Source of the DNA: a virus
Lineage: Duplodnaviria; Caudoviricetes
DNA: 55,037 bases
IMG/VR virus record: IMGVR_UViG_3300032223_002281
Span: 1 to 55,037 of that record
Direction: 5' to 3' (one strand)
Under the pieces are notes generated by a model. It ran no database searches. It saw nothing but the letters and a program-made list of their open reading frames with translations, and was not told where the DNA came from. Numbering within the stretch: the first letter of the stretch is position 1; each line of letters opens with the position of its first letter. Position numbers and translations under genes: made by a program. This document shows, piece by piece, positions 16,362 to 53,135 of this stretch.

Positions 16362-16368
16362 CTTATAC

Positions 16369-16998: not shown

Positions 16999-17110
16999 CT
17001 GATGTAATCCCCAATGCTCTTAATTCTGCTTCTGTAATTCCAGTAACTGAAATTAATTTAGCAATACCACTTTCACGAAGTTGTTGTTCTGTTGTTTTTT
17101 CTTTAGCCAT
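16985..17110 (-). CDS. Small hypothetical protein (41 aa)
   Basis: MAKEKTTEQQLRESGIAKL...; fills the gap with stop/start overlap. Confidence 0.45.
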   Translation of the reverse strand: MAKEKTTEQQLRESGIAKLISVTGITEAELRALGITSDVNN

Positions 17111-17535: not shown

Positions 17536-17543
17536 ACATAAGA

Positions 17544-18101: not shown

Positions 18102-18103
18102 GA

Positions 18104-18463
18104 TTAAGAAACGCTTACCTGATCCGTGACTGTAATTGATCCAGTTAACACTGTATGAACTTGATTATATGGTGTACCTGATTTGGTAATTTCTACATCA
18201 TAAACATAATTTGTTCCTGCATTTAAATTATTTGCATCCGAAGGTCTTATTGCACACAAAATATATCCTTCAGAAGCATGAAGAATAGAGTATGCTTCGT
18301 GATATGTTGATGATCCAGCAGATCCACGATTTTGTGAAAAAGAAAATTTTACAGAATATCCTGTAAGTGGATAAGGTTGACCAGAAGCGTCTTTTGGATA
18401 AATCCTAAACTCATAAGTATCACCCTTATAATATGAAATATTGTATGTACCTGGAAATGCCAT
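18104..18463 (-). CDS. BppU-like protein
   Basis: YKGDT...YVYDVEI...LTGSITV; leaderless promoter before ATG 18463. Confidence 0.6.
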   Translation of the reverse strand: MAFPGTYNISYYKGDTYEFRIYPKDASGQPYPLTGYSVKFSFSQNRGSAGSSTYHEAYSILHASEGYILCAIRPSDANNLNAGTNYVYDVEITKSGTPYNQVHTVLTGSITVTDQVSVS

Positions 18464-18480
18464 AGAATTATTATACCACG

Positions 18481-19203
18481 TCAAACCACAGAAACATAAA
18501 TACTTTTTAGTTTTCCAATTGCATCAAAATCTGTTCTTATTTGTGGAACTCCACCTGCAGCCCACATATTTTGATCCTCTATAAAAAATTGTTGATCTAC
18601 AGAAATATCATACGTGTATTGATATTTAAACGATCCAATTAACTTTGACGGAGAAAATTTTGTTGATGAAAATAATGTTCTAAACCATACCTCAGTATTA
18701 TTAGTGTATGTTGTTAATTCAAAATTATAGGTTACATTTACAATAGCACCAATCTCCAATGGTTTAAATGTTAAAGATTTTGAATTAAAATTATAAAGGC
18801 TGGTTCCAAAAGCAGATTCTGGCATAAAATTTTCATTTTTAGTTGAACCTTTTTCAATTAATTCTAAAGATACCCAACCATCGTCACCATTTGTTATTCC
18901 AAGTCTTGCTTCTGGCGATTTTAAGTTTGTATAAGATGCCCAACCTGCTTGTTGTCCAGAAGCAGACAAAGAACTTTTTCCATCTTCTCCTTTTGGCCCT
19001 CTGTCACCTTTAGGACCACGAGCACCATCTTTACCAGCATCTCCATCTTTTCCTGGTTCTCCTTTAGGACCTTGCAAACCTTTTGGACCTTCTGGACCAG
19101 GAACTGGAATATATGTTGCCATATCTGTTGAGGGAACTTGCTGCTGTAATACTTGAGAAGCATAAGCATTTTTAGGAAAATCCATATTTTTTGAAACAGC
19201 CAT
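18481..19203 (-). CDS. Collagen-repeat structural protein
   Basis: Gly-X-Y run GPEGPKGLQGPKGEPGKDG... Confidence 0.75.
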   Translation of the reverse strand: MAVSKNMDFPKNAYASQVLQQQVPSTDMATYIPVPGPEGPKGLQGPKGEPGKDGDAGKDGARGPKGDRGPKGEDGKSSLSASGQQAGWASYTNLKSPEARLGITNGDDGWVSLELIEKGSTKNENFMPESAFGTSLYNFNSKSLTFKPLEIGAIVNVTYNFELTTYTNNTEVWFRTLFSSTKFSPSKLIGSFKYQYTYDISVDQQFFIEDQNMWAAGGVPQIRTDFDAIGKLKSIYVSVV

Positions 19204-19299
19204 TTTGTCTCCCCTATTTATTTACTTTATAAGTTTTATTTTCAATTTTTATTACTGGTGGAAGTTGAGGTCTGGGTGTTGTAACTTTTACTACTGCCA

Positions 19300-19677
19300 T
19301 TACAATGCTCCAGAAATATCACCAATTACAGTGATTGTTCCAATAACTGGTGTCCAAATATCTCCACTAATTGTTACTTCAAGATCAAAAGTTAGTTCTG
19401 CTACCTGGGATGTATATCCAGTTCCCCAATATGTAGTAATATCAGGAGTTGCTTTAATTTCAACATATCCATTATGTGAGACAACTTGTAATTCATCAAT
19501 TATGTCTCCTTTTGGGTCATAAGCGCTTGCTTTATATGTCCATCCAGAAGTAGAAAAATAAGTGATTTCATCATTTTCTAAAAATTCAACCCTCAAAGAG
19601 GCTGAATCTCCTCTAACAACATTCCATTTAATTTTTACTGGGTTAGCACCAAAAATTTCAGGTCCACACATAGTCAT
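19300..19677 (-). CDS. BppU-like protein
   Basis: VVRGDS...FDLEV...GTITV. Confidence 0.55.
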   Translation of the reverse strand: MTMCGPEIFGANPVKIKWNVVRGDSASLRVEFLENDEITYFSTSGWTYKASAYDPKGDIIDELQVVSHNGYVEIKATPDITTYWGTGYTSQVAELTFDLEVTISGDIWTPVIGTITVIGDISGAL

Positions 19678-19701
19678 AACATTGATTATACCATTAAATT
19701 A

Positions 19702-23964: not shown

Positions 23965-24192
23965 TTATTTAACTCCCATCACTAGGGACATATAACGCTT
24001 AGCGATAATAATCGCCTTAGGGTTAAGTGTCATATCATAGCGACTAGAACCTGTCGCAGGATATTTATTGTTAATGCGTTGTGCAATTCGCACAGGTAGC
24101 ATTTTAGGTGCAGGTGCGTAACCTGCAGCCTCTAGACCAAAGTCCTTAGCAATATCAGAACGGATTTCGTTATAGTATGTAGTGTAGTTCAT
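23965..24192 (-). CDS. Hypothetical early protein
   Basis: AGAAAGGTGG SD; own sigmaA-type promoter. Confidence 0.6.
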   Translation of the reverse strand: MNYTTYYNEIRSDIAKDFGLEAAGYAPAPKMLPVRIAQRINNKYPATGSSRYDMTLNPKAIIIAKRYMSLVMGVK

Positions 24193-24312
24193 ATTGAACC
24201 ACCTTTCTTTTAATTCGATAACCTTGTGTTATCTGTTTCCTTGACCTAGGTTATTTGCTCTATATTCTAGAGGCTCACTAGGATTTAGCCTTATTTAATT
24301 TTCGATACTGTA

Positions 24313-24341
24313 AGTATAGCATAGAAATGTCAAAAAGTCAA
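24313..24341 (-). promoter_or_regulatory. SigA-type promoter, duplicated at 24547-24575
   Basis: TTGACT-N17-TATACT; 27-bp near-identical copy has TTGACT-N17-TATAAT. Confidence 0.75.
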
Positions 24342-24343
24342 GT

Positions 24344-24508
24344 TTAGACACGGACAATTCGGACATTTTCTGTGTGATTTACCTCACATCCCTCATGGTA
24401 TAGGGCAGGTGCTAGGACTACCTGTCCGCAAGGGCAGAGGTTCATCAAACCTCTTGGATAATCGGATACTGTAGCGAATCCTCTCGCTCTTTCATGTAGT
24501 GAGTTCAT
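24344..24508 (-). CDS. Small hypothetical protein (54 aa)
   Basis: AGAAAGGAG SD; MNSLHERARG...CPCG...H..C. Confidence 0.5.
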   Translation of the reverse strand: MNSLHERARGFATVSDYPRGLMNLCPCGQVVLAPALYHEGCEVNHTENVRIVRV

Positions 24509-24636
24509 TTGGAACTCCTTTCTTTTTTAATCTTTCTAATACTAGTATTATAGCACAGAAATGTCAAAAAGTCAAATCGAAACACGGCGTGTCGCAATAA
24601 ATCTTTTGTGATCTACACCACATTCGGGCCGACCAT

Positions 24637-24703
24637 AGTTATCCACATGATGTACATCACACCCACGATTTACGCTTAAGTTATCCACATGATGTAAGTC
24701 ACA
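24637..24703. promoter_or_regulatory. Two DnaA boxes, each overlapping a CRP-like site (direct repeat, 42-bp period)
   Basis: TTATCCACA at 24639 and 24681 within AGTTATCCACATGATGTAnnTCACA x2. Confidence 0.7.
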
Positions 24704-24743
24704 ATCCCTTTTGTCCACTATGTCCGTTTTGTACACCCCTAAA

Positions 24744-24765
24744 TGTCAGACCCCCCTGCTATACT
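24744..24765 (+). promoter_or_regulatory. RecA-NDp/PafBC-type promoter
   Basis: TGTCAG-N10-TATACT. Confidence 0.7.
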
Positions 24766-24820
24766 TACTAGTATAAAGATTGAACAATAAGTAAATCTAC
24801 TAAAAGAAAGGTGGTCTCAA

Positions 24821-24985
24821 ATGACTACACTAAATGAAACTCTATTCTCTACTATCGTACACGAGTACCATAACGGAGGCGTTAAGTCATCTTATGGCTT
24901 AGACGCTTACACTCGTAAAGAGTTAATCAGATTCCTGTTTGACTCTAAGCGTAACCCTCAGTGCTTCTGCATTGAGTGTTTGTAA
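24821..24985 (+). CDS. Small hypothetical protein (54 aa)
   Basis: AGAAAGGTGG SD; ends CFCIECL. Confidence 0.55.
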   Translation: MTTLNETLFSTIVHEYHNGGVKSSYGLDAYTRKELIRFLFDSKRNPQCFCIECL

Positions 24986-24987
24986 AA

Positions 24988-25009
24988 TGTCAGTCCCCTC
25001 TGATACAAT
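24988..25009 (+). promoter_or_regulatory. RecA-NDp/PafBC-type promoter
   Basis: TGTCAG-N10-TACAAT. Confidence 0.7.
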
Positions 25010-25042
25010 AATCCTAATAAACAAAAAAAGAAAGGTAGTCAA

Positions 25043-25234
25043 ATGACTTACACTATGAAAATCGAAACCTTCTCAGGTTCAGTAACAAAAATCAACCTCC
25101 CTTCTCGTGGAGCAGTTGCTCAGTTCGTATCACAATATCCTGAAAAGTTGCCTGTTGGCGTTTCAGTAAAAATATCTTGCGACCTAATGGGTTTGCGTGG
25201 AGTTCTTAAAGGAAAGGCGTTGGTGTCTAACTAA
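25043..25234 (+). CDS. Small early-region protein
   Basis: SD AGAAAGG; paralog of 23469-23669. Confidence 0.6.
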   Translation: MTYTMKIETFSGSVTKINLPSRGAVAQFVSQYPEKLPVGVSVKISCDLMGLRGVLKGKALVSN

Positions 25235-25428
25235 TGATAACTATTCCTCACTCTGTTAATTTTGTAACTGAACTAGATGAAACTAATCCAATAGTTCAAC
25301 GCCTGCTTCAAGTTGTAGAGCCTTCAAAGTTTCTTGCTGATATGCTTGCACAACTTTTAATCTCTGAGGGCTTTATTGATAAGTTAAATGAAGGCAATTC
25401 TTATGCAACTCTAAAGGTGGTTAAATAA
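25234..25428 (+). CDS. Hypothetical protein
   Basis: Coupled ORF. Confidence 0.5.
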   Translation: MITIPHSVNFVTELDETNPIVQRLLQVVEPSKFLADMLAQLLISEGFIDKLNEGNSYATLKVVK

Positions 25429-25728
25429 TGGCTATTTATACTCGTAAAACTTTTATCGCTGTTGCTAATTTGCTAAATGAATATGCTGATTTAATCGACG
25501 AATTTACCTTTGAAGATTTGGTCGCTGATTTTGGAGATATGTTTTTTGCAGATAATCCAAACTTTGATTTTAAAAAATTTAGAAGTGAGTGTAATAAATA
25601 ATGATTAGACTAATAACAACACTCGTTCAAATATTTTTATTTATTCCCGCAATGATTGGATTGCGTTGGATGTATTTAGATATAAAAAACGAATACAAGA
25701 ATTTAAATTCTCAAATTAAATAAAATGA

Positions 25729-25755
25729 AATCCTGAACACGATCTAAAACTGTTC
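25729..25755 (+). ncRNA. Repeated pseudoknot RNA motif, copy 1
   Basis: AATCCTGAACACGATCTAAAACTGTTC; ATC/GAT and GAACA/TGTTC stems. Confidence 0.6.
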
Positions 25756-25765
25756 CCAATTTTTT

Positions 25766-25816
25766 GGGCCGACGCACTCGGGCGTGTCGTGGTTTACGTA
25801 TGTGAGATTAATCACA
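25766..25816. promoter_or_regulatory. Operator cassette (GGGCCGAC, WhiA-like GACAC box, TTACG, CRP-like site)
   Basis: GGCGTGTCG at 25781; TGTGA-GATTAA-TCACA at 25801. Confidence 0.6.
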
Positions 25817-25947
25817 CGACTTGAGCGTCTCATTATTTAAGAATACTCGCTAGTAAGTTGATATTTTTAGAGTAATAGGCTAGACTTACATAGTAAGAAA
25901 AAATAAATAAAAAAAGATTTTATCGTTACGGCGTGTCGTTTAGGAAA

Positions 25948-25969
25948 TGTCAGCCATATCTGATAGGAT
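25948..25969 (+). promoter_or_regulatory. RecA-NDp/PafBC-type promoter
   Basis: TGTCAG-N10-TAGGAT. Confidence 0.7.
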
Positions 25970-26001
25970 ACTAGTATCAAATAAAGAAAGAGGTAGCCCC
26001 T

Positions 26002-26217
26002 ATGTCAGCAAATGTCTATTCAATAGAAAACCTACTTGTAGGAAAAATGTATTACTCAAATACTTTAACAGGAGAAATTATCTCCGCAGAAAAACACCCT
26101 CATGCAGTTTGGTATCAAGATTGCGAAACTTATCTTGTAGAGGTTGCACCTAATAGTGGAAGCAACACTTGGGGTCGTAGAACTTATCGCACAGTTGCAG
26201 TAAAGACGGAGGAATAA
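26002..26217 (+). CDS. Hypothetical protein
   Basis: SD GAGGT; follows promoter. Confidence 0.6.
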   Translation: MSANVYSIENLLVGKMYYSNTLTGEIISAEKHPHAVWYQDCETYLVEVAPNSGSNTWGRRTYRTVAVKTEE

Positions 26218-26362
26218 TAATGGGATATGTAGAAATTTTTAGAATTGACGAAAATGGTGCAGGTTGGGTAGACTTATCTGAAGCAACACCTGATGAAAAA
26301 CTTAATATCGAATTAGGCTTACTCAATGAGGGTGCGCTATTTACAACGAAAGAGGCTAACTA

Positions 26363-26572
26363 ATGGAATATAATTACTCACTAACTATTGCCTATGATGG
26401 TGAACTAGTATCAACAACTAGAAGTGCAGATATGCTTGAAATTGTATCTGCGTGGAATAAATGCGTAGACTTTGGTGATGCTAAAGAATATGCAACCTAC
26501 AATATGTCAGACCCTATTGGCAAAATGTATACTAAGACTTTCTATCGTAACGGAAATGTGAGCGTGAAATAA
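26363..26572 (+). CDS. Hypothetical protein
   Basis: ORF track, GAGG SD. Confidence 0.55.
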   Translation: MEYNYSLTIAYDGELVSTTRSADMLEIVSAWNKCVDFGDAKEYATYNMSDPIGKMYTKTFYRNGNVSVK

Positions 26573-26713
26573 TGCCAGTATTTCAATTTACTACTTTCAT
26601 AGATGTAAAAGCAAAAGACTATGACTCAGCAATAGAAGCGTTTGACCATAATCTAAAATATGGAAATATTAACCGAAGCGATGTATATGTCGCAGACATA
26701 GAGGAAAAATAAT

Positions 26714-26989
26714 ATGGGATCAGTTACAGCACTAGGTATTCAGGACAGCGTTCTTGATTTAGAAACTCAATTAGCATATCACTTGCAGGGTAATCACTAT
26801 CCACCCGTTCCACTTTCTATGGTGCAACCTTGCATCGAAGCAATTGATGCTTACTATGAAGATAACAAAAGTGAAAAACTAATTAAAATGCCTGAAGGCG
26901 TATCATATAAAGGTAAGACACACGCACCCGCTTGGGCTATCATCGAACAACACCACTTGCAATTTTGGCTTCCAGAAGAGGAGTACTAA
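26714..26989 (+). CDS. Hypothetical protein
   Basis: HLQGNHYPPVP...HHL; GAGG SD. Confidence 0.6.
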   Translation: MGSVTALGIQDSVLDLETQLAYHLQGNHYPPVPLSMVQPCIEAIDAYYEDNKSEKLIKMPEGVSYKGKTHAPAWAIIEQHHLQFWLPEEEY

Positions 26990-26992
26990 AAA

Positions 26993-27235
26993 ATGGGTGA
27001 TAGAATAAAAACTATGGATTTTAAAAAGATAGATACACTCAACGTTGATCAGTTAGAGATTGATGATTTTATTTCTGTTAATGGTGAAATTGTGCAAGTA
27101 ACAGGAATTACTCCACTACCTGATGGATATGCAATTATGTATTTAGATTCCTATGAAGAATCAGATTTAATTGAAGTTGATGACTATGCAACGTTTAATT
27201 TATATTATCCATTTGATGAAAACGCAGACGAATAA
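26993..27235 (+). CDS. Small acidic beta-rich (SH3/KOW-like) protein
   Basis: LEIDDFISVNGEIVQVTGI. Confidence 0.5.
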   Translation: MGDRIKTMDFKKIDTLNVDQLEIDDFISVNGEIVQVTGITPLPDGYAIMYLDSYEESDLIEVDDYATFNLYYPFDENADE

Positions 27236-27302
27236 TTATTCATAACCCTGCATAAAAATCGGACCGCCCCGTTCGGGCGTGTCGCATGTGAGATTAATCA
27301 CA
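27229..27302. promoter_or_regulatory. Operator cassette (tandem ARG-box-like, WhiA-like, CRP-like)
   Basis: CGAAT-AATT-ATTCA-N6-TGCAT-AAAA-ATCGG; GGCGTGTCG at 27276; TGTGA-GATTAA-TCACA at 27287. Confidence 0.55.
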
Positions 27303-27459
27303 TTTACGTAAGTTGACATTTTTGCCCAATGTGTGCTAAGATTATTTTATGAAACAGAGAAAAACAGTTGAGGAATTACGTAAACTTATGGAGTTACGTA
27401 GGTCTAACGCTGCCTCTGCCGTGCCTTCCAAAAAGACATATACTCGCAAGGGTAGAAAA

Positions 27460-27481
27460 TGTCAGTCGGAAATGCTAAGAT
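27460..27481 (+). promoter_or_regulatory. RecA-NDp/PafBC-type promoter
   Basis: TGTCAG-N10-TAAGAT. Confidence 0.7.
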
Positions 27482-27680
27482 ATAAATATCAAGAAAAAGG
27501 AGAATAACATAATGGGAAATATTGCAGACGAATTCTATGACGAATACTATTCTTTGGTGTGCCCTAGTTGCCACGAAAATGAATGCGATGAATTTATGCC
27601 TATGTGTCACTCTTGCTGGTTAGATGAATTAGCAAATGGATATTCTGATGAAGACGCTAACTTAGAAATGAGCCTTAATC

Positions 27681-28403
27681 TTGAATAAATTAAAACGTTC
27701 GAATGATCGTAAGGTTGCTAACCTAGTTACTAAGAATGGTAAGCAGGCTGCAATTGCTAATACCTTTGGTCTCCCCGCAGGTAAAGAATATTCTTGCCCT
27801 GGCGCTACTAGCGTATGCGAATCTGTATGCTATGCAGGTAAATTAGAAAAAATCTTCAAGGGTGTTAAGGTTAACTTATTGCATAACTGGGATTTATTGA
27901 AAGACGCAGACTATGACACTATGGTCTCACTACTTAATGAAATGATAATTGATTTTAAAAAGGATTGTGTTAAAAAAGACGCACCTATGCTATTCCGTAT
28001 CCACTGGGATGGTGATTTCTTTAATGACACTTATGCTTATGCATGGAAACAAGTTATCATGGACCATAGTGAGGTTCAATTCTGGGTTTATACACGAGTA
28101 AAGTCTGCAGCGCTTATGCTAAAAGATATGCCTAACTTATCTCTTTATTTCAGTACTGATAGTGAGAATGTAAAAATTGGTGTTGACCTTAAAATTAATT
28201 CTGGTGTACGCCTTGCATACCTTGCTAAGAATTTTGCTATTGGTCAAGCAGACATGAAAGAAATGATTGGTAAGCCTGGTGCTAAATGTCCTGAAAATAA
28301 AAAAGCAATTCCATTAATTAGCAATGCAGGTTCCGCTTGCGTTTCTTGCGGATTGTGTGTATACTCTAAAGCAGACATAGTTTTTTCTGCAACTAAGAAA
28401 TGA
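27681..28403 (+). CDS. Gp88-like radical-SAM-related phage protein
   Basis: CPGATSVCESVCYA; FRIHWDGDFF; WVYTR; C-terminal CVSCGLC. Confidence 0.75.
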   Translation: MNKLKRSNDRKVANLVTKNGKQAAIANTFGLPAGKEYSCPGATSVCESVCYAGKLEKIFKGVKVNLLHNWDLLKDADYDTMVSLLNEMIIDFKKDCVKKDAPMLFRIHWDGDFFNDTYAYAWKQVIMDHSEVQFWVYTRVKSAALMLKDMPNLSLYFSTDSENVKIGVDLKINSGVRLAYLAKNFAIGQADMKEMIGKPGAKCPENKKAIPLISNAGSACVSCGLCVYSKADIVFSATKK

Positions 28404-28632
28404 GTTAACATGCGTTGGTTGTTAATTGTATTTATTTTATTTTACTTTTTTATTATTCAATAACTTGACAATCCCCCGAAAGGTGGTCGGCCCAAATTTT
28501 TGATCTTGTCAAGTTACGACACGCATTTAAGATGTGATGTTTCTCACACCCGAAAATGGCATTTTAATTGGTATTTTTGACATTTTTAGTGTAAAATTAA
28601 ACTATAACCCAAACAGAAAGGCAAGACACCCA

Positions 28633-28803
28633 ATGACAATCTCAGGATATACTTACCAAATTGGTGATTTATTTACAACAAGCAAAACAGGCATTACAGG
28701 TCGTATCGCAGGTTTTTCACCAATCAGTAACAAGGTTACCAGAGTTTCACTAGTCTTGGCAAATGGCTCACGCCGTTTGGCTATGGTTAAGACCTCAAAG
28801 TAA
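28633..28803 (+). CDS. Small SH3/KOW-like protein
   Basis: YQIGDLFTTSKTGITGRI; tandem paralog follows. Confidence 0.6.
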   Translation: MTISGYTYQIGDLFTTSKTGITGRIAGFSPISNKVTRVSLVLANGSRRLAMVKTSK

Positions 28804-28906
28804 TCTCAAAATGTGAGAAATGTCAGAAATGGATTTGACATTTTAATCTGCAAAATGTTATACTAATACAGTAAGCAAAACCCCTAACAGAAAAGGAAAT
28901 AAACAA

Positions 28907-29074
28907 ATGGCAGTAAATACAGCAACTTACAAGGTTGGCGATTTATTCACAACTCAGAAGTCAAAGGTAACAGGAACAATTCTTGAAATCACACCTAACA
29001 AAGACGGACAATCAGTTCGTGTTAAGTTAGATGTAAATGGAACACCTCGTTACACAACTTGGACAGCGAAGTAA
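28907..29074 (+). CDS. Small SH3/KOW-like protein (not in ORF track)
   Basis: MAVNTATYKVGDLFTTQKSKVTGTILEI...; AAAGGA SD; own promoter. Confidence 0.65.
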   Translation: MAVNTATYKVGDLFTTQKSKVTGTILEITPNKDGQSVRVKLDVNGTPRYTTWTAK

Positions 29075-29090
29075 TTTCCACCTCCAAAAA

Positions 29091-29117
29091 AATCCTGAGC
29101 AAGATGTAAAACTGCTC
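29091..29117 (+). ncRNA. Repeated pseudoknot RNA motif, copy 2
   Basis: AATCCTGAGCAAGATGTAAAACTGCTC. Confidence 0.6.
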
Positions 29118-29156
29118 AACTCAACCCCCAACTAACAGAAAAGGAAACAGACCCAA

Positions 29157-29579
29157 ATGGCACAACGCAAAGCAATCTCAGTAAAGATACCAACACAGCG
29201 AGTTATTGACGCACTCACAAAATCACTAGAAAAGTTAGAACTTGACTACGCATCTCAAGCAGAAAACGAAGCAAAGTTTAACAAAGCAAACGAAGCGTGG
29301 AAAAAAGAAATCTCTAACTATGCAATCGCAAACATTTCTAAAGCAGAGAACCTTCGCACTAACTATCGTTCTTGGAACAATCAGTTAAACATTGACTTCG
29401 ACATCACAGTTTCAGAATTGGATATGCCAAAGCAACCTGAGCGTGATTTCGTAACAATGCACCAGCATACATACAATGAGCAGAAAGAGGAAATCTCTAA
29501 TGCTATTCGTATCCTAAAGATGACAGATGAGGAAGTAGTTAGCACTTCTACTTACAATGCTGTTGCTCGTTACCTATAA
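29157..29579 (+). CDS. Hypothetical helical protein
   Basis: 140-aa ORF with SD. Confidence 0.65.
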   Translation: MAQRKAISVKIPTQRVIDALTKSLEKLELDYASQAENEAKFNKANEAWKKEISNYAIANISKAENLRTNYRSWNNQLNIDFDITVSELDMPKQPERDFVTMHQHTYNEQKEEISNAIRILKMTDEEVVSTSTYNAVARYL

Positions 29580-29718
29580 CTAAATAACGAAACAGGGGCA
29601 GTTTAGAGAGTGTTCTCGCCCAATGTCGTAAGTAAGAACTCTCATTATTCGCCAGGCTGATTAGGGCGATTATAGAAATACTATAGAGCAAGGGTACTGC
29701 AGCCCTAAAGAAGCAGAC

Positions 29719-29744
29719 ATCCTGAGCACGATCCAAAAAGGCTC
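29719..29744 (+). ncRNA. Repeated pseudoknot RNA motif, copy 3
   Basis: ATCCTGAGCACGATCCAAAAAGGCTC. Confidence 0.5.
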
Positions 29745-29758
29745 ACCCCACGGGGTTC

Positions 29759-29788
29759 TTGACAAATGTCAGTGGCCACGAGTACAAT
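29759..29788 (+). promoter_or_regulatory. Dual promoter: TTGACA -35 plus RecA-NDp element
   Basis: TTGACA-AA-TGTCAGTG-N8-TACAAT. Confidence 0.75.
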
Positions 29789-29820
29789 TAATATAAACAA
29801 ACTAACAGAAAGAGGCCCCC

Positions 29821-30231
29821 ATGGACCAAACAATAGTAAATGCAACAGAAGATTTTCTTAAGTCTCAAATCAGTGCACTGCAGCAGTCAATTACATCTAA
29901 GGATGAATTCATTCAGCGGATAAACCAACGTTCATATGCAGATTCCGCAAACCTTAACCGTATCGTTGAAGACATGCAACAGTGGACCTTGGAATCACTT
30001 AGCAATGAATCAATTACAACGTCGCAGGCAGAAGAAATTGCAGCAATCTGCGGATTTGAATTAACAAAAGAAGTTGAAGTTGAAGTTACCGTAACTTATA
30101 ACTTGACACTGCAGGTGCCTCATGATGAGGACGCAGAAGATATTGTTAACGATATTGATTTTGATTCTGTATCTTATAATTCTGACTACGTAACTTGGCT
30201 AAGTTCAAATGTAGACCGTATCGATTTTTAG
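29821..30231 (+). CDS. Hypothetical acidic protein
   Basis: 136-aa ORF with SD. Confidence 0.6.
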   Translation: MDQTIVNATEDFLKSQISALQQSITSKDEFIQRINQRSYADSANLNRIVEDMQQWTLESLSNESITTSQAEEIAAICGFELTKEVEVEVTVTYNLTLQVPHDEDAEDIVNDIDFDSVSYNSDYVTWLSSNVDRIDF

Positions 30232-30249
30232 TAGGGGGCTACTAAATAA

Positions 30250-30278
30250 ATTCCTGGGCCATGAATAAAAACTGGCCC
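30250..30278 (+). ncRNA. Repeated pseudoknot RNA motif, copy 4
   Basis: ATTCCTGGGCCATGAATAAAAACTGGCCC; ATTC/GAAT and GGGCCA/TGGCCC. Confidence 0.6.
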
Positions 30279-30385
30279 TTTTAAAATCCCCAAAATTTTG
30301 GGTCGGCCCCATGTGATCAATATCACAATGTGATTTACGACACTATTAAGAAATGTCCGATTTATCCCATGTTTACGTAGCCTAT

Positions 30386-30414
30386 TTGACATTGTCAGTG
30401 CGTGGGTGTATGAT
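30386..30414 (+). promoter_or_regulatory. Dual promoter: TTGACA-N17-TATGAT with exact RecA-NDp match
   Basis: TTGTCAGTG-N8-TATGAT; CRP-like site upstream at 30312. Confidence 0.75.
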
Positions 30415-30445
30415 TATATTAACAACAACAGAAAGAAGGAAACTC

Positions 30446-31468
30446 ATGGCACATGACCTCGAAACTCAAAATGGAAAAGCATCTTTTGCATCTTTCCGTG
30501 AGCCTGCATGGCATGGATTGGGTACTGTCTTTACAGAAGAAAAAACAACTACAGAAATGTTGGAATCAGCAAATCTTAATGGTTGGAATGTTCGTCTGGA
30601 AGATTTAGAGACCCCATCTCATCTAACAAGCGACAAGGCTTATCAGTACGTTTTGCGTACTAACCCTACAGATAATACCCAAACAGATATTTTGGGAATC
30701 GTTGGTGAACGCTATCACCCATTGCAAAATGAAGATTTATTTTCATTTGGTGATAACATTCTCGATGGTGGTGGACGTTGGGAAACTGCGGGTTCAATCA
30801 AGGGTGGACGTGTAGTATTTGGCTCCCTTGCTCTTGAACGTGAAACAGTTCTTGACCCATCAGGTGTTGCAGATAAGGTTAAAACTTATCTTCTCATCAA
30901 TACATCACACGATGGCTCTATTGCAATTCAGGCATCAATCACACCTGTGCGTGTTGTCTGCGCTAATACTCTTAATCTTGCTCTTGGTGGCGTAGGTCGC
31001 AAGAAGAATAAGAATATCAAGCAATCATTCAAAATTCGTCACACACAAACAGCAAATGGCAAAGTGCAAATTGCTCGTGAGACTCTTGGTCTTGCTAATG
31101 CTTACATGGACGAATTCGACGTTATGGCTAAAGCACTTTTTGAAAAAGAAGTTAATGCTAAGCAATTTAACGACATCATTCTTGCAGCGTATCCAAAGCC
31201 TGAAAAGGATTCTAAGGGTGCAATCAAGAAATGGGAAAACAAAGTTGATATTATTAACGACATCTACACAGGTGAATTTAATGGTATGATTGCAGGTAAC
31301 GCTTGGGGTGCATTTAACGCACTTACCGAACGTCTTGATTGGTATCGTTCTGCTCGTGGTGGCAACAATGAATCAATGCTTGCTTCTGCATCTGGTTTTG
31401 ACCCTGCAATCAATGCAGAAAAAAATCGTTTGCTAAAAGTTGTACAAAATGTAATGCAACTCGCATAA
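30446..31468 (+). CDS. DUF932 family (TIGR03299-like) phage/plasmid protein
   Basis: MAH...PAWHGLG...ETAGSIKGG...NTSHDGS...TPVRVVCANTL...RHT. Confidence 0.85.
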   Translation: MAHDLETQNGKASFASFREPAWHGLGTVFTEEKTTTEMLESANLNGWNVRLEDLETPSHLTSDKAYQYVLRTNPTDNTQTDILGIVGERYHPLQNEDLFSFGDNILDGGGRWETAGSIKGGRVVFGSLALERETVLDPSGVADKVKTYLLINTSHDGSIAIQASITPVRVVCANTLNLALGGVGRKKNKNIKQSFKIRHTQTANGKVQIARETLGLANAYMDEFDVMAKALFEKEVNAKQFNDIILAAYPKPEKDSKGAIKKWENKVDIINDIYTGEFNGMIAGNAWGAFNALTERLDWYRSARGGNNESMLASASGFDPAINAEKNRLLKVVQNVMQLA

Positions 31469-31472
31469 CAAA

Positions 31473-31500
31473 AATTCCTGAGCATGAATTAAAACTGCTC
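31473..31500 (+). ncRNA. Repeated pseudoknot RNA motif, copy 5
   Basis: AATTCCTGAGCATGAATTAAAACTGCTC, 5 nt upstream of tRNA-Asp. Confidence 0.6.
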
Positions 31501-31505
31501 TTCAT

Positions 31506-31579
31506 GGTCCGTTAGAATAGTTGGTTAGTTCGCTACCCTGTCACGGTAGAGGTCACGGGTTCAAGTCCCGTACGGATCG
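31506..31579 (+). tRNA. tRNA-Asp(GTC)
   Basis: Cloverleaf; CTACC-CTGTCAC-GGTAG anticodon arm; GGTTCAAGTCC T arm; no encoded CCA. Confidence 0.92.
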
Positions 31580-31582
31580 CAA

Positions 31583-31616
31583 TAAATAAATATGCAAGCC
31601 AGTGCATAAAAATGCG
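31583..31616. promoter_or_regulatory. Tandem ARG-box-like operator
   Basis: TAAAT-AAAT-ATGCA-N6-TGCAT-AAAA-ATGCG. Confidence 0.55.
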
Positions 31617-31626
31617 GGGCGGTCCA

Positions 31627-31704
31627 AAAAATGTCATGATCAAATTTAATTACGATGACCGCCACAAATCTCTAAAAATGTCAAACTAAAATTTAATTAC
31701 GATG
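31627..31704 (+). repeat. 31-bp imperfect direct repeat
   Basis: AAAAATGTCA-N5-AAATTTAATTACGATG x2, 47-bp period. Confidence 0.75.
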
Positions 31705-31768
31705 GACTTGTATTTTTGCCGAAGTTAGGGTAGAATTAATACATAACCTACTAACTAAAGGACCCAAA

Positions 31769-32194
31769 TTGAGAGAAAGATCAAAAGGCTATATTGGCCA
31801 AATCGTTGATGGCAAAAAACTAGCAGTAATCGCTAATGGAATCTATAATCTACAGTATAGTAGTAACTTTAGTGAATGTACTGTAGATAATCTTCTATTC
31901 GTTACCCTTGAAGAAAAAAATGTATTTGGCGACAATAAATATGCCTTAGTTTGTTCAGAGGGTGTTGGCTGGGAGCAAGACACTTACGGATGTTTAGAAG
32001 TACCAACAAACATTGGCCAAATGGGTCTATGGAATGGAAGAGTCTTTATATCAGTAGATACAGTTAAAGAATGTCTAACAGATCAAACAGAAGATATCGC
32101 AGACTACATCCGTGTTTTTGGTTCTAGATTAGATAATAACTGTTCCCTATGGCAGTCCAAAATGTCAGTAGTAGACAGTACACTAGCAATATGA
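31769..32194 (+). CDS. Hypothetical protein
   Basis: 141-aa ORF, TTG start. Confidence 0.55.
   Translation: MRERSKGYIGQIVDGKKLAVIANGIYNLQYSSNFSECTVDNLLFVTLEEKNVFGDNKYALVCSEGVGWEQDTYGCLEVPTNIGQMGLWNGRVFISVDTVKECLTDQTEDIADYIRVFGSRLDNNCSLWQSKMSVVDSTLAI
32163..32184 (+). promoter_or_regulatory. RecA-NDp/PafBC-type leaderless promoter
   Basis: TGTCAG-N10-TACACT, 6 nt before ATG 32191. Confidence 0.7.
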
Positions 32195-32346
32195 CCCAAA
32201 CATACAAACCTTATACCATAGACGAATTAGTTACTCTCATTTATGAGGATAATCTAGAACATTTTGATGACAGAGATACATCAGAAGACTGTGATTGTTA
32301 TATTCATACTACTATTAGAACTATTGTAAAATATTGGGATGAATAA
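32191..32346 (+). CDS. Small hypothetical protein
   Basis: Leaderless start MTQTYKPY; CDC..H. Confidence 0.5.
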   Translation: MTQTYKPYTIDELVTLIYEDNLEHFDDRDTSEDCDCYIHTTIRTIVKYWDE

Positions 32347-32554
32347 TATGTGGACTAAGTATAGTTATCTATGTACTGAGTGTGATTCTCTTATTGAGGT
32401 TATTACTAATAAAACTCCCGTGATGGATCCAGGCTGTGTATGTGGTATTGATACCTTCGTTACCCGAACAGCAGTAGAACCTGAGCAGATGGCTCCTGTG
32501 ATTAGTATCACACCTTCAAACCTTGTAAAAATCAACTCAAACCCCTATAATTAA
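32339..32554 (+). CDS. Small zinc-ribbon protein
   Basis: YSYLCTECD...CVCG. Confidence 0.55.
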   Translation: MNNMWTKYSYLCTECDSLIEVITNKTPVMDPGCVCGIDTFVTRTAVEPEQMAPVISITPSNLVKINSNPYN

Positions 32555-32702
32555 TATATGGACCTAAACACATTAAAAGAATATATAAAAATACACAAGA
32601 TATCTCTAGAACAAGACCTAGATGAATGCATGGGAGATTGGGCTATCATTGATGACCTTACTCCCCGTATTGAGACCTTACAGTATGTATTGGAGTTAAT
32701 AG

Positions 32703-32942
32703 ATGAGTGATAAGTATCCTTTAATCCCCGAACATTTAGAAAAAGGTTTGGAAGATATAACTATCCCATTAATTGATTTAATGCATGGACACCTTAAAGT
32801 TGAAATGCTTGACTGCGAAGAAGCAATGAAAGATAATACTGATAGATATTTGGAAGGGTATATGGAGGCCTTGACAAATATGTATTGCCTAACGTATAAT
32901 TTATCTATAGACCGTAAACACATAGAGGAGACCCTAGTATGA
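32703..32942 (+). CDS. Hypothetical protein
   Basis: ORF track, coupled to next gene. Confidence 0.55.
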   Translation: MSDKYPLIPEHLEKGLEDITIPLIDLMHGHLKVEMLDCEEAMKDNTDRYLEGYMEALTNMYCLTYNLSIDRKHIEETLV

Positions 32943-33151
32943 CAGACCTAGTCATAGTAAAAGCAACACTTGAAAAAGAAATAGATGAGGCTTGGCACAT
33001 CTTTAATCAGATTGCTACTGAGGAAGAAGAAGATGGCTACTCAGACGCTATGCAATCTATGGAACGAACTGAGGCAAATGGTTTTGCTGTTGGCTTGGAA
33101 CGTGCTTATTATATTTTGTTTAACGAACGCTATATCTCAGAGGCTAACTAA
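32939..33151 (+). CDS. Hypothetical protein
   Basis: ATGA overlap, GAGGAG SD. Confidence 0.55.
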   Translation: MTDLVIVKATLEKEIDEAWHIFNQIATEEEEDGYSDAMQSMERTEANGFAVGLERAYYILFNERYISEAN

Positions 33152-34930: not shown

Positions 34931-35062
34931 TTAACCGACTTTTTTAAAACCGCCCTTTACGAACGACCTTAAAAAATCGCTGGACTTTACGATCCCTCTT
35001 TTACGATCCACTGGATTATACTCCCAAACCTTATATTTGTCAAACAATGGTATAATAATTTT

Positions 35063-35338
35063 ATGAGTCCAAGACATTTTGCAAACTATGCCAAACAACA
35101 TCCTAAAGAATACAAACAATTTTCAGATAACATGTGGAATGGGTTTGTATCTATTACGAAGCATGTTCCTATAGTTAATCGTTTCTTTTCTTTTACCCCC
35201 GACTTCTTGGCAGAAGCCATTGATCTTAAGGATTCAGAAGCAGCAACGGCTTTGGGCGAGGCGCTGGCCGAGGTATACCAATTTTCCCAGGGTATACCAT
35301 TAGATCTCTTTAATACACAATCATTCTTTGAAGAGTAA
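35063..35338 (+). CDS. Hypothetical protein
   Basis: Leaderless TGGTATAAT promoter upstream. Confidence 0.5.
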   Translation: MSPRHFANYAKQHPKEYKQFSDNMWNGFVSITKHVPIVNRFFSFTPDFLAEAIDLKDSEAATALGEALAEVYQFSQGIPLDLFNTQSFFEE

Positions 35339-35644
35339 CAAACACTCTATATAGACAAACAAGTGTTTTTAAATGTTTCCAAACATTTTGTTTGATATAT
35401 TTTAATTTAAAACAATCTAATTAATTTTATTACGATTTAACTCAAAATTTGCCAAAAATCCTTTTACGATGTCACATGTTTTGTGTCAAAACAAAGTTGA
35501 CAAACACTAATGTTTGGTATATAATGCATCCTAATTTGGCAGATATAAAGGTTTGACAAAGGTTTGAAAGTGTGGTATAAGTGTTTGGATATGGGGGGTT
35601 TGAAAAAAGCGGGATTACGACGGCGCCTTTAAAAATGCTCTATT

Positions 35645-35670
35645 CCCCACTATGCTCCACAACACTCCAC
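35645..35670 (-). promoter_or_regulatory. MraZ-box-like triple repeat
   Basis: Minus strand GTGGAG-N4-GTGGAG-N4-GTGGGG. Confidence 0.55.
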
Positions 35671-35708
35671 TTCTAGACTATTTAATTAAATAATCAGTAA
35701 GATCTATC

Positions 35709-35870
35709 TGTGGATAAACCTGTGTATAACTATGATTTAAAACCATGATATTATCATTCTATGGACCTATGGATACTATACATTTACTGGATTTACGCTA
35801 TGTTAGGCATATCAGCAGTAGCAATCATTGCTGCTCTTTACGAAGCATTTAAAGACTAACCTGTGGATAA
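35709..35870 (-). promoter_or_regulatory. Three DnaA boxes
   Basis: TGTGGATAA at 35709, TGTGTATAA at 35721, TGTGGATAA at 35862. Confidence 0.65.
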
Positions 35871-36193
35871 CTACTATTGACAAACATTTTTAAAAGGAGT
35901 ACAATTGAAGTATGAACATATACAGAGTATCGTTATTGGATTACGCAACGGCATTTGATCTTGATATCTTTGCCTCAACAGCAGATGAAGCCAAAGCCAT
36001 GGCTATGAAAGAAGAACCTAATATGAGTGTTACTAGAGTAGTTAATCTAACTCCACATGACTCATGATTGCAACTATGAACTAGACCTAGATGGTCAAGT
36101 AACCTGTATTATATGTGGGGCTATGGATGATGACATGAGTCACTCTGATAACAAAAAATCTATGTTTGAGTCTCAGATAGATTTTGAGTAAAA

Positions 36194-36535
36194 TCAGGGA
36201 ATATCAAGACTTTTAATTGCCTTATTGACCATACGGATCAAACCTTTACGAGTAACCTTATTAGCATCAAATGTCTCAGTATATCCATTTTGAGGCATAT
36301 CCTCCTTACTTAGGAAGTGTCCGTGTTTAGCCCTTAGTGTATTTAGTACTATAGATTCTACGGCTTTTGCCTTATCCCCCTCAAAAAAATGCCAATAGGC
36401 TACAAGCAACCATCCTTTGGTCTTATGGGCAGCAAACCTCTTACCTGATATATTTGATATGCCTATCTTGACAGCCCTATGATATGGGCTATATATTATG
36501 TAAAGTATGGTTTCATTCACAGTATTATTATACAA
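36194..36535 (-). CDS. GIY-YIG / T5orf172-like protein
   Basis: LYII...VKIGIS...R...E...GYTETF. Confidence 0.65.
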   Translation of the reverse strand: MYNNTVNETILYIIYSPYHRAVKIGISNISGKRFAAHKTKGWLLVAYWHFFEGDKAKAVESIVLNTLRAKHGHFLSKEDMPQNGYTETFDANKVTRKGLIRMVNKAIKSLDIP

Positions 36536-36537
36536 TG

Positions 36538-36608
36538 CTTCGGGTGATGGTTACGATCCATCTTTATCAGGTTCGGAACCTGGAGTACTACCATTATACG
36601 AACCCGAA
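36538..36608 (-). tRNA. Atypical tRNA, anticodon CCG on a Gln-like body
   Basis: TTCGGGT/ACCCGAA acceptor, G73; D loop AATGGTA; anticodon loop TTCCGAA; T loop ATCGTAA (non-canonical). Confidence 0.65.
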
Positions 36609-37085
36609 TAGATTATAAGTATATCACAGTTGACAAAAAGCATTCTTTTGGTATAATAGTTATATGAAGAAAGTATATCGCTCACTAGTTAACGGTGCAC
36701 CCTTTATTCTTGCTATGTCTTTAGGGTTAGCACTATTGGAAAATCATATTAATGGGTGGAAGTGTGCATTCATTGCCCTTGCACTTTTGAACAGCGTAAA
36801 ATATCTTATGGATTATGAGTATGGAAATGAATAAAGAAATCAGAGTAAAAGACCGTTATTGGGTTCATATTGGATATTCATGGCGTGGTTTTGGTCTAGG
36901 TTTTAGAATAGACAAATACAGCATAAACCTAGATTTTCTATGGTTTTGGATTGGAATTGAATTTTGATTAAAAACATTATTATCTTATTATTGGCTTTGA
37001 TGCTTTCAATAGTAGCCATTGATGATGACCACCAAAGAGCAATTGTTAAAGACCTTAACACCTACATATCTCAAATTGGTGAATA

Positions 37086-37292
37086 ATGATTAACTTTGAG
37101 ATACCTGATCCATTTGAAACATTTGTAACTAAAAAGTATGCCAACTATAATGGTTCTAGGTATAACTTCTTTGCCAAAGAATGGGATTTTAACTGTGGGT
37201 GTTGTGGTGAATTACTCAATGCCCCAAACAAAAAAACGCTAACCAAGATACGTTTATATCATACTAGAAATGAGTGTTTAAATGGATACTGA
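37086..37292 (+). CDS. Small Cys/His protein
   Basis: CGCCG...HTRNEC. Confidence 0.5.
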   Translation: MINFEIPDPFETFVTKKYANYNGSRYNFFAKEWDFNCGCCGELLNAPNKKTLTKIRLYHTRNECLNGY

Positions 37293-37668
37293 ACAAACCT
37301 TCGACCAAGAGTTTACTGTTGAAGAATTAACTAAGATTATTGTAGATAACGCTAAGGCTGAGGTTAAGAGTAGGTTTGGCAATAAGAAAAGACATCGTCA
37401 ATGAAAGAATGTCAGCATACTTGGTATATGCGTGAACCTGGAATACAATGTACTAAGTGCTTAGTTGTTTGGGAGAAAGATGAAAGAGCCTAAGATCGTT
37501 TCTATGGATTGGCGTAGCCTTGGCTATTGGCCTGTGTGGAAAGATGGAAAGAAGGTATGGGTGCCTAAAGATAAAGTAACAGATAGCGAGTCGCAAGACT
37601 CGTAAGGTTGTTTTGCCCATCTATTTTGCGCCGAACTTTAAAAGCATATAAATGCTATACTTAAAATA

Positions 37669-38331
37669 ATGAAAACAATTATAATCAACTCAGCGCCCCG
37701 CACTGGAAATACTTTTTTATCTGATTGTTTAGACTATCTTTTATCATTTAATAATATAAAAAATAATTTTAATCTTTACTCACATTTGCATGATTTTAAA
37801 AAATTATCTAATAATGAACCAGATTCTTTTACTTATACTATTTTGCGTGAACCTATAGATGTAATAACCTCTAGCGTTTTTCATGCCGTTGCTTCTGATG
37901 GCAAAAACCATACTGACCCTTTGGATCATTTTAAAGATAGGGTTGCCTTTAATGCAATTGAAAGATATAGTAAATTTTTAACAGAAATGCTAATACAGGA
38001 ACATGTCAGAATTATATTATTTAATAATCTAATATCTAAACCACATAATGTGTTAGATAAAATAATGATTGATCTTGGTGTTGAACAATATAAAAGAATT
38101 AGAATTGAAGATGTTAAAGAAAGCATTGCCAAAAGAGATGAAACTTTAAATAAAAACCTATCTCCAGAACATTTTGGATTCTTAAACCATTTGCCACATG
38201 CAAAAAGATCTATTAGATTTTATAATGATCTGGAGTCTTTTTTAAAAAGAAATATAGACTTTATTAATTTACAAAAACAATATGATGAATTATTGCTTAG
38301 AATCAATATGATTAATAAACAACTGTACTAG
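37669..38331 (+). CDS. Sulfotransferase-like protein
   Basis: IIINSAPRTGNTFL (5'-PSB loop); LREPID...S (3'-PB). Confidence 0.65.
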   Translation: MKTIIINSAPRTGNTFLSDCLDYLLSFNNIKNNFNLYSHLHDFKKLSNNEPDSFTYTILREPIDVITSSVFHAVASDGKNHTDPLDHFKDRVAFNAIERYSKFLTEMLIQEHVRIILFNNLISKPHNVLDKIMIDLGVEQYKRIRIEDVKESIAKRDETLNKNLSPEHFGFLNHLPHAKRSIRFYNDLESFLKRNIDFINLQKQYDELLLRINMINKQLY

Positions 38332-38769
38332 TATATGGTATAATCTTATTATGATTGCTATGAGATCTGTGGAAAAGTGCTATTATTGTGAAAATCCCGC
38401 AGAATTTACACAACTAGTTGGAGAGCATCCAGATGAATTTGCTGTATCTGGTGTATGTAAAAAGCATTTTGTAATGGACAGTTCATCTTGATTGTGGTAT
38501 GATTGATATATGAAAAATACCTATAAATGTTCAGAATGCAAAACATCAATTGTTATATCAACAACGGTACATACTTTGCCAGAATCAATTATCTGCCCGT
38601 GTGACACAGTAATGCCACTCACAGCATCCAAGTAGATGTACATAGATTGCTCTTGTGGAAAAAGAATGCCATATGAAACAGATCAAGATAAATTATTTTA
38701 TTTAAAATATCATTCAGAATGTACTGATGACACTACCGTTTTTGATTCAATTCTGGTATACTAAAACTT

Positions 38770-39270
38770 ATGAATTTAAATCTAATTGCCAACCCAGGAC
38801 CAGCAAAAGATATTGCTGAAGCACATATCGAGCAAAGAATCCAAGTTCCTCACGTACCATTAAAATTTAATAGTGAAACAGATAATGTAACAACTGTTGC
38901 AATTTTAGAAACACCTTTTGAGTTTATTTTAAATGTTTCAGATGATTTATCTATTTCTAAAACAATCGAAGAATATAACGTATCAACTAAAAATATTTTA
39001 AATGCAACATATATTTATTCTGCAGATGATGTTATTAATAAAACTGAACAATTTATAATGGATTTGTTTAATAAATTAAATTTAGATGAAGAAAATTATA
39101 AAATTAAAACTGGAAGATTATCTTTATACGAAGATGTTTTAAATAAAAAAGATGTTCACATTAATAAAACAAATCTTAATAACAAAATAATTAAAAATGC
39201 AGAAGATTATAATTTTGAAGAATCTTGGATTTTATATAATATTGCACGGGAACGCATTATAAAATTATGA
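38770..39270 (+). CDS. Hypothetical protein
   Basis: Leaderless promoter; 166 aa. Confidence 0.5.
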   Translation: MNLNLIANPGPAKDIAEAHIEQRIQVPHVPLKFNSETDNVTTVAILETPFEFILNVSDDLSISKTIEEYNVSTKNILNATYIYSADDVINKTEQFIMDLFNKLNLDEENYKIKTGRLSLYEDVLNKKDVHINKTNLNNKIIKNAEDYNFEESWILYNIARERIIKL

Positions 39271-40479: not shown

Positions 40480-40480
40480 T

Positions 40481-40552: not shown

Positions 40553-40572
40553 CGCCCTTCTAGGCCTACTTT

Positions 40573-52252: not shown

Positions 52253-52890
52253 TACTGTTTAATCCTAAAATTACCCCATTTAGAAAATTTGGTAACCACC
52301 TTATCATCTAAATCAGGATATAAATCCAAATGATTCCATTGTGAAATATCAACAAAAGATGCTTTGGCAATAGCATCGCTTTCATTTTCGGCAAAAACAT
52401 CCAGTTCGTATTCATCTAAAATAGAAGAAATTACTGTATATTTATTTTTTCCATCTAACAAGCCTTCTTTATTATTTGAATATGTAGCATTGCCAATAAC
52501 AAAATAATCATTGTCTTTTTTATTAATTCTAAACTTAAAGTTAGTAGGAAACATTAAAAAACTTCCTGCACCTAAAACATAGGTTCTGTCATTAATTAAA
52601 AGATCTACTAATAACTCTCCTTTTAAATTAATAATAAAAGATACTTTAGGTAAAATCATGCCTTCTTTGTATATAGAAAATTTAACAGAATTTTTTTCTG
52701 CATATTTACCATTTACTGATCCAAGAATTTCCTCTTTAAGATCTGCAACAAGTTTAGAATTTTCTTGTCCATACTTGTCAATATCATCTATAATTGATTT
52801 TACTTGATCCTCATTTAATAAAAAGTCTACAAGGTGAATATCATTAAACTTTAATCTGACATTGTTAGGCTGTTCCATGTATTCCACCAA
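52252..52890 (-). CDS. Hypothetical protein, possibly degenerate DSBH fold
   Basis: GSFLMFPTNF but no HxD/H triad. Confidence 0.45.
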   Translation of the reverse strand: MVEYMEQPNNVRLKFNDIHLVDFLLNEDQVKSIIDDIDKYGQENSKLVADLKEEILGSVNGKYAEKNSVKFSIYKEGMILPKVSFIINLKGELLVDLLINDRTYVLGAGSFLMFPTNFKFRINKKDNDYFVIGNATYSNNKEGLLDGKNKYTVISSILDEYELDVFAENESDAIAKASFVDISQWNHLDLYPDLDDKVVTKFSKWGNFRIKQ

Positions 52891-53135
52891 TCTTCTTTTT
52901 TCCTATGATTATTAAACTCTCTTGAAATTGATCCACCTTCTAAGTAAACACCACCCCAAACGCCCCATTCTTTTCCTGTAACACCAACTGCAAAACAATT
53001 TTTGCTTATTGGACAGTTAGCGCATAGTTTATCTATTGCTGGTCTTAGAAGTTCATCTTCTTCATATTTATCAAAAAAAAGATTTGTATCATAATCCAAG
53101 CATAGAGCATCGTCTTTCCACTCATGCTTTTTCAT
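52851..53135 (-). CDS. whiB: WhiB-family Fe-S transcription factor
   Basis: W...ALC...FF...CANCP...C...EWGVWGG. Confidence 0.9.
   Translation of the reverse strand: MKKHEWKDDALCLDYDTNLFFDKYEEDELLRPAIDKLCANCPISKNCFAVGVTGKEWGVWGGVYLEGGSISREFNNHRKKEDWWNTWNSLTMSD

Follow-up and report, generated by a model that had tools for sequence, protein, structure and literature searches.

The activator PafBC of actinobacteria reads promoters whose motif, determined by chromatin immunoprecipitation sequencing, is tGTCgg(N10)tA(N3)T, the 3' part of which is the SigA -10 element. According to the same account, PafB contacts positions -23 to -28, termed the '-26 element', the GTC triplet is read by two arginines and there is no -35 consensus (PMC8635444). 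PafBC is activated by single-stranded DNA (PMC11804915). The present analysis concerns an uncultured tailed phage, IMG/VR record IMGVR_UViG_3300032223_002281 (Duplodnaviria; Caudoviricetes), all 55,037 bases of which were analysed (hereafter the window), and specifically seven copies of the motif TGTCAG-N10-TAnnnT in a block of small genes at 24.7-32.2 kb. Judged by their sequence and setting, these copies are real promoter-like elements with the architecture of PafBC promoters. To our knowledge, PafBC promoters have so far been described solely from a chromosomal DNA-damage regulon, and a literature search for published work on phage promoters of the PafBC/RecA-NDp type found none among the papers listed.

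Motif counts in the window were compared with those in 100 dinucleotide shuffles. The exact motif was found seven times against a mean of 0.53 expected, with a shuffle maximum of 3 and none of the 100 shuffles reaching seven. All seven sites are on the + strand within 24744-32184 (7 in 7.4 kb), and a scan of the whole window found the - strand, and everything outside 24.7-32.2 kb, free of matches. The ten-base spacers are all different, so the sites are not copies of one repeat. Each site precedes a start codon on the same strand, and for six of the seven the distance from the end of the site to the ATG is 30-55 nt, with a Shine-Dalgarno sequence. The stricter form TGTCRGTG-N8-TAnnnT was found at two of the sites (29767 and 30393), compared with 0.05 expected. 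A sequence-only reading made before this analysis had reported these seven positions, the two stricter matches, the coding strand and the fixed spacing, and all proved exact. It had also listed a weaker copy, TGTCAG-N10-CAAAAT, at 26505..26526 on the + strand. This copy is present, inside the open reading frame (ORF) 26363-26572, but matches with one mismatch are not enriched in the window (22 against 19.1 expected), so it cannot be told from chance and carries no weight as a real site.

Five of the seven sites lack a -35 element. The first candidate promoter (24744..24765, +, TGTCAG-N10-TATACT) is one of these; the ATG at 24821 follows 55 nt downstream, and the first 12 nt of the site, ATGTCAGACCCC, are the same as in the site upstream of recA in the actinobacterial genome G020. 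The second (24988..25009, +, TGTCAG-N10-TACAAT) lies 33 nt before the ATG at 25043 and is followed by a run of small genes to ~25723. The third (25948..25969, +, TGTCAG-N10-TAGGAT), 32 nt before the ATG at 26002, is followed by genes to 27235 and has a canonical promoter ~90 nt upstream. The fourth (27460..27481, +, TGTCAG-N10-TAAGAT) is embedded in the 3' end of a small ORF (27349-27507), 30 nt before the ATG at 27512 of a Cys-rich 58-aa gene, behind which stands a 240-aa phrog_1392 gene (27681-28403). The seventh (32163..32184, +, TGTCAG-N10-TACACT) heads a further run of small genes; with 6 nt between its end and the ATG at 32191, the 51-aa gene at 32191-32346 would be leaderless. The remaining two sites carry a perfect TTGACA, 18 and 17 nt ahead of the -10 respectively, and are thus hybrid promoters in their layout. 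The fifth (29759..29788, +) reads TTGACA, 2 nt, TGTCAGTG, N8, TACAAT and lies 32 nt before the ATG at 29821. The sixth (30386..30414, +) reads TTGACA, 1 nt, TGTCAGTG, N8, TATGAT and lies 31 nt before the ATG at 30446, where a DUF932-like gene (phrog_1221) begins that extends to 31468.

Conservation of the motif was assessed among relatives of the phage. The 55 kb record is estimated to be 48% complete, and genomes of the family are ~115 kb. DNA similarity searches with the region 24000-33000 gave no match to cultured phages, nor did a structural protein of the phage have a match among cultured phages; Streptomyces and Mycobacterium phages have proteins with ~53% identity to two of those encoded in the block. 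With the DUF932-like protein as query, 427 related IMG/VR stretches were found, of which the best 80 loci were kept (90-95% identity in this protein; 924,710 nt), giving 308 non-redundant motif sites. Four complete relatives of 112-119 kb were also used.

In the 80 loci, TGTCAG-N10-TAnnnT was found 498 times on the gene strand and 9 times on the other strand. The gene-strand spacing was sharply defined, with 498 occurrences at 10, 2 at 9 and 2 at 11, and with smaller peaks of 152 at 16, 71 at 5 and 51 at 15. Across the 308 sites the spacer is variable, while the hexamer and TA..AT are fixed, giving a near-consensus TAnAAT -10 that often has TG ahead of it; three A/T bases (an AAA run) precede the hexamer, and no conserved -35 was found. 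When each base of the hexamer was replaced in turn, the ratios of gene strand to other strand were 42:0 for TGTCGG, 11:0 for TGTCAC and 9:1 for AGTCAG, and the other single changes showed no gene-strand excess. Only TGTCGG and TGTCAC are clearly tolerated variants. Of the 41 loci in which the sequence upstream of the DUF932-like gene could be used, 27 have the exact motif there, and some of the remaining orthologous promoters have TGTCGG or TGTCAC at the same place. Among the four complete relatives, 26 of 33 matches fall in one co-oriented cluster of 5-9 kb per genome.

These counts also bear on the idea that the sites are mainly decoys, which would soak up PafBC and so weaken the response of the host to DNA damage or its defence, any transcription being incidental. 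The number of sites would suit such a role, as there are seven in a short block and more in the relatives, and pafBC reportedly affects mycobacteriophage resistance (attributed to Rafique 2025). All the sites, however, have a good -10 and lie on the coding strand 6-55 nt before a start codon, and a strand bias of 498:9 is something that promoters need and decoys do not. A decoy role is therefore considered very improbable.

The phage motif has the same 22-nt layout as the PafBC promoters (RecA-NDp, recA P1-type) of Mycobacterium, Streptomyces and other actinobacteria, which are read by RNA polymerase-SigA. Both have TGTCRG at about -28 to -23, an exact 10 nt to TAnnnT, an invariant GTC and mostly no -35; the A or G that the phage family tolerates at hexamer position 5 is the R of the older RecA-NDp consensus, and TGG or ACCCC follows the hexamer in the phage as in chromosomal PafBC-type sites. 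The phage sites differ from this class in being clustered on a phage genome, where they would drive small genes of unknown function and not repair genes. They also differ in lying in AT-rich DNA, with the AAA run before the hexamer and the near-consensus -10, and in the addition of a full -35 at two sites. The sequence-only reading had described them as mycobacterial PafBC/RecA-NDp promoters. The architecture part of that description holds (hexamer, N10, TAnnnT and a missing -35 at five of seven sites), but the mycobacterial frame does not, given the absence of a cultured relative at the DNA level and a GC content of 35%, ranging from 28 to 40% along the window, which indicates that this DNA is not mycobacterial.

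To place the motif in a chromosomal setting, 151 sampled actinobacterial genomes were examined with the reversed motif as control. Tallies on the sampled actinobacterial genomes include the unpublished genomes G007, G024, G054, G088, G094, G126, G153, G232, G324 and G342, none of which is used as a named example. In four chromosomes, the numbers of WTGTCAG-N10-TAnnnT matches relative to the reversed control were 47:0, 25:0, 18:2 and 16:1. The chromosomal matches read TGTCAGTGG or TGTCAGACCCC, and both flavours are present in the phage. The exact motif was found upstream of recA in G020, G035, G015 and G050, all chromosomes with WYL gene pairs, and also upstream of dnaN, nrdR, two Uma2 nuclease genes and a comM-like gene. 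Among the genomes whose recA region was inspected, the broader pattern TGTC-N12-TAnnnT preceded recA in 15 of the 41 that had a WYL match compared with 0 of the 18 that had none (Fisher's p 0.0025, the genomes not being independent); this count excludes G020 and G035, which had been picked by the motif.

This association of the recA architecture with WYL genes points to PafBC, and is one of the observations that make it improbable that some other host factor reads the sites, such as an alternative sigma factor or an activator of the type of WhiA with WhiB. Sigma adaptation by another actinobacterial activator, AfsR, has been described and would lend such a factor some plausibility (PMC11804915). 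The phage moreover seems to use several host regulators, as the block contains six CRP-type palindromes and two DnaA-box words. The WhiA word is GACAC, which would require GTGTC on the top strand; a G precedes TGTC in 0% of the 308 sites. We know of no actinobacterial sigma factor consensus with TGTCAG 10 nt before a TAnnnT -10.

The presence or absence of an activator encoded by the phage was then predicted from its protein domains. WYL, HTH_11 and Sigma70_r2 gave no match at E <= 1 in the window and the four complete relatives, and one sub-threshold Sigma70_r4 match (15.3 bits) was found in one relative. Pfam searches of 43 small ORFs of the window returned 13 families at E <= 0.05, none of them a DNA-binding regulator, and most of the 43 small block proteins belong to no known family. 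An Atlas look-alike search with two candidate early proteins, the 52-aa basic protein encoded at 27349 and a 140-aa protein, gave no DNA-binding lead, only nameless viral clusters and one L5 gp78-like lead at 0.90. The sequence-only reading had offered a phage WYL gene outside the window as its alternative. None of the four complete relatives (0/4) has a WYL, HTH_11 or Sigma70_r2 match, and since they lack WYL, HTH_11 and sigma domains, a phage-borne PafBC is unlikely.

Because the phage has no detectable activator, it most likely uses that of its host, and on balance we consider it probable that the host's PafBC reads the seven sites. In such a mechanism the housekeeping sigma factor of the host would read the TAnnnT -10, and TGTCAG, exactly 10 nt upstream, would stand in for the -35. 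The PafB half of the WYL-domain activator would bind this -26 element, with PafBC placed between sigma region 4 and the DNA ('sigma adaptation'). Single-stranded DNA, arising from infection, from phage replication or from damage already present in the host, would switch PafBC on. The appearance of single-stranded DNA in the cell would thereby fire the block at 24.7-32.2 kb. We infer the binding by host PafBC, the trigger and the early timing from the promoter sequences and their placement. Genome ends were also considered as a clue to early timing and were discarded, since relative G004 has a 'direct terminal repeat' of just 123 bp.

The other promoters of the block suggest a different possibility, namely that a phage-encoded activator of unknown family binds TGTCAG together with sigma region 4 in a MotA/AsiA-like manner, is made first from canonical promoters, and resembles PafBC through mimicry or convergence. 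At least four canonical -35/-10 promoters, in addition to the two hybrids, lie among the TGTCAG sites. These were predicted at 25858..25886 (+, TTGATA-N17-TAGACT), at 27313..27342 (+, TTGACA-N18-TAAGAT with TG before the -10), at 28835..28864 (+, TTGACA-N18-TATACT with TG before the -10; upstream of the gene 28907-29074) and at 31708..31736 (+, TTGTAT-N17-TAGAAT; upstream of the gene 31769-32194). The second of them ends 6 nt before the ATG at 27349, so that the gene for the 52-aa basic protein is leaderless. This interspersion recalls the early and middle promoters of T4, and a small activator of a new fold could be hidden among the block proteins that lack a known family. A WhiB-like gene of 94 aa (52851..53135, -; 42.4 bits, above the Pfam cut-off) would also fit, since WhiB was found in 5/5 records (the window and the four complete relatives) and the WhiB family binds sigma region 4. 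Such an activator would also accommodate the use of other hexamers by the sampled planktonic lineages.

The parallel between PafBC and MotA/AsiA is one that PMC8635444 itself draws, and the T4 middle promoters (sigma appropriation) share with the phage sites an element that replaces the -35 and a host-type -10, set among ordinary early promoters. The T4 MotA/AsiA system differs in that T4 brings two proteins of its own, whereas the present phage has no detectable activator (no search by name was made for the MotA and AsiA families) and its word is the host PafBC element. Chromosomal recA promoters agree with the phage sites in hexamer and spacing, in the A or G allowed at position 5 and in the ACCCC or TGG after the hexamer, and nothing would lead an unrelated phage protein to copy a recA promoter in all of these features. 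The domain and look-alike searches above also provided no candidate, so that a phage activator of this kind appears unlikely, although less so than the decoys or another host factor. The MotA box of T4 is a different word, located at -30.

Several further elements were observed in the block. Six perfect TGTGA-N6-TCACA palindromes of CRP/GlxR type are located at 24373, 25801, 27287, 28533, 30312 and 32497, all within the block (24373-32512); most are 26-74 nt upstream of a canonical -35, and two are identical (TGTGAGATTAATCACA). The GC-rich words GGGCCGAC... and CGGGCGTGTCG, conspicuous in AT-rich DNA, stand between gene units just upstream of CRP-type palindromes (25766-25790, 27262-27286 and 30300-30310). 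Two DnaA-box consensus sequences, TTATCCACA at 24639-24647 and 24681-24689, each in a ~25 nt repeat, sit immediately to the left of the first TGTCAG promoter, within the divergent control region, and four further copies of TTATCCACA occur at 244, 35709, 35862 and 47223. A short, conserved hairpin-like element, CCTGrrCa ... AAAAcTGyyC, follows directly after block-gene stop codons at 25732-25755, 29092-29118, 29720-29745, 30253-30277 and 31474-31498. Two adjacent paralogous 55-aa genes (28634-28803 and 28907-29074) have ...Y.(I/V)GDLFTT.K... in common and each possess their own canonical promoter.

Returning to host PafBC as the reader of the sites, the nature of the host was considered. A phage-encoded WhiB indicates that the host should be an actinobacterium. 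WYL genes were found in 126 of the 151 sampled actinobacterial genomes and, among genomes with a rhodopsin, used as an approximate indicator of planktonic life, in 29 of 34 (9/13, 5/5 and 15/16), mostly as adjacent pairs. The -26 hexamer at recA is lineage-specific in its last two bases, with the forms TGTCAG, TGTCAC, TGTCGT, TGTCGC, TGTCCG and TGTCWT; TGTCGT, TGTCGC and TGTCCG were found in one genome each. Since these two bases vary by lineage, the host should belong to a TGTCAG-type lineage, and the -26 hexamer at recA might serve as a lineage marker of PafB specificity. The seven tRNA genes of the phage (31506-31580, 36537-36608, 40406-40645 and 48814-48963) are Asp-GTC, Arg-CCG, Gly-TCC, Glu-TTC, Arg-TCT, Gln-TTG and Ile-TAT. 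Most of these read A-ending codons, a weak hint that the host is richer in GC than the phage. Small WYL-less genomes were considered as hosts and set aside, none of those listed having a rhodopsin and the tRNAs for A-ending codons pointing, by the same weak argument, to a host of higher GC.

A number of observations weigh against host PafBC. The canonical promoters interspersed in the TGTCAG block could make a phage activator first, as in T4. No WYL match was found in 25 of the 151 sampled genomes. TGTCAG at recA was not found among the rhodopsin-bearing, planktonic-looking genomes sampled; TGTCAC is used at recA in nine rhodopsin-bearing genomes and three others, and sixteen tiny rhodopsin-bearing genomes of 31-34% GC have TGTCWT there, together with a -10 other than TAnnnT. 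Likewise, TGTCRG-N10-TAnnnT was not in excess in five small rhodopsin-bearing genomes with WYL pairs, and the four genomes with TGTCAG at recA are of 65-70% GC, compared with 35% for the phage. When the phage WhiB was compared with 401 actinobacterial genomes, identities were 34-40% with no lineage signal, save for phage contigs binned into one metagenome-assembled genome, and the phage tRNAs gave at most 88% identity to the same genomes, again with no lineage signal. The Streptomyces BE-cluster phage Jay2Jay, which shares DUF932-like genes (53% identity) and likewise has a block of small genes on one strand, where every gene has a promoter of its own in a ~100 nt gap, uses TTGnnn-N17-TAGACT with a -35 in the corresponding block. 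The first 50 kb of Jay2Jay contain one TGTCRG-N10-TAnnnT match, outside the block. As Jay2Jay uses other promoters, PafBC-type wiring would be a feature of this phage family and not of all related phages.

In G026, a genome of low GC with a WYL pair, a relaxed motif was barely enriched (135 against 94). A WhiB search of genome contigs, made to find the host, returned nothing but phage contigs that had been mis-binned with unrelated phyla.

Outside the block a second type of site was found. TGGTATAAT, followed after 5-8 nt by an ATG, was found in 10 exact copies distributed over both strands, all of them at ORF starts, and a relaxed pattern gives more sites. This class covers 11851-19693 (-), 35048-41279 (+) and 48788-48805 (-). 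The sites look like extended -10 promoters with leaderless mRNAs, a class apart from TGTCAG. Leaderless mRNAs are a habit of actinobacteria. The division of the genome into regions by two promoter classes fits separate regulation of these regions.

The phage also contains several auxiliary-looking genes (41277-45616, 45606-46373, 48335-48790 and 50393-51112), which encode three 2OG-Fe(II) oxygenases, a Nol-like carbamoyltransferase, a tetrapyrrole-methylase-family protein and a ferritin/Dps-like protein. The best cultured matches of the carbamoyltransferase are in cyanophages and one Ralstonia phage, at no more than 43% identity.

For the family as a whole, which comprises over 400 contigs of abundant, uncultured actinobacterial phages, we tentatively propose, as a possibility short of a probability, that phages without an activator of their own have wired this block to the host's sensor of single-stranded DNA, PafBC. 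The timing signal could then be incoming or replicating phage DNA or sunlight damage, and TGTCAG would act as a barcode of the host lineage. If this is true, it would be the first virus to use sigma adaptation through a host activator, and the promoters would be suited to the published in vitro transcription system for PafBC. A lineage-specific hexamer could also help to assign hosts to uncultured actinobacterial phages without links based on CRISPR. Phage gene timing would be tied to single-stranded DNA or to damage in the host, which would matter for abundant planktonic bacteria of sunlit waters.

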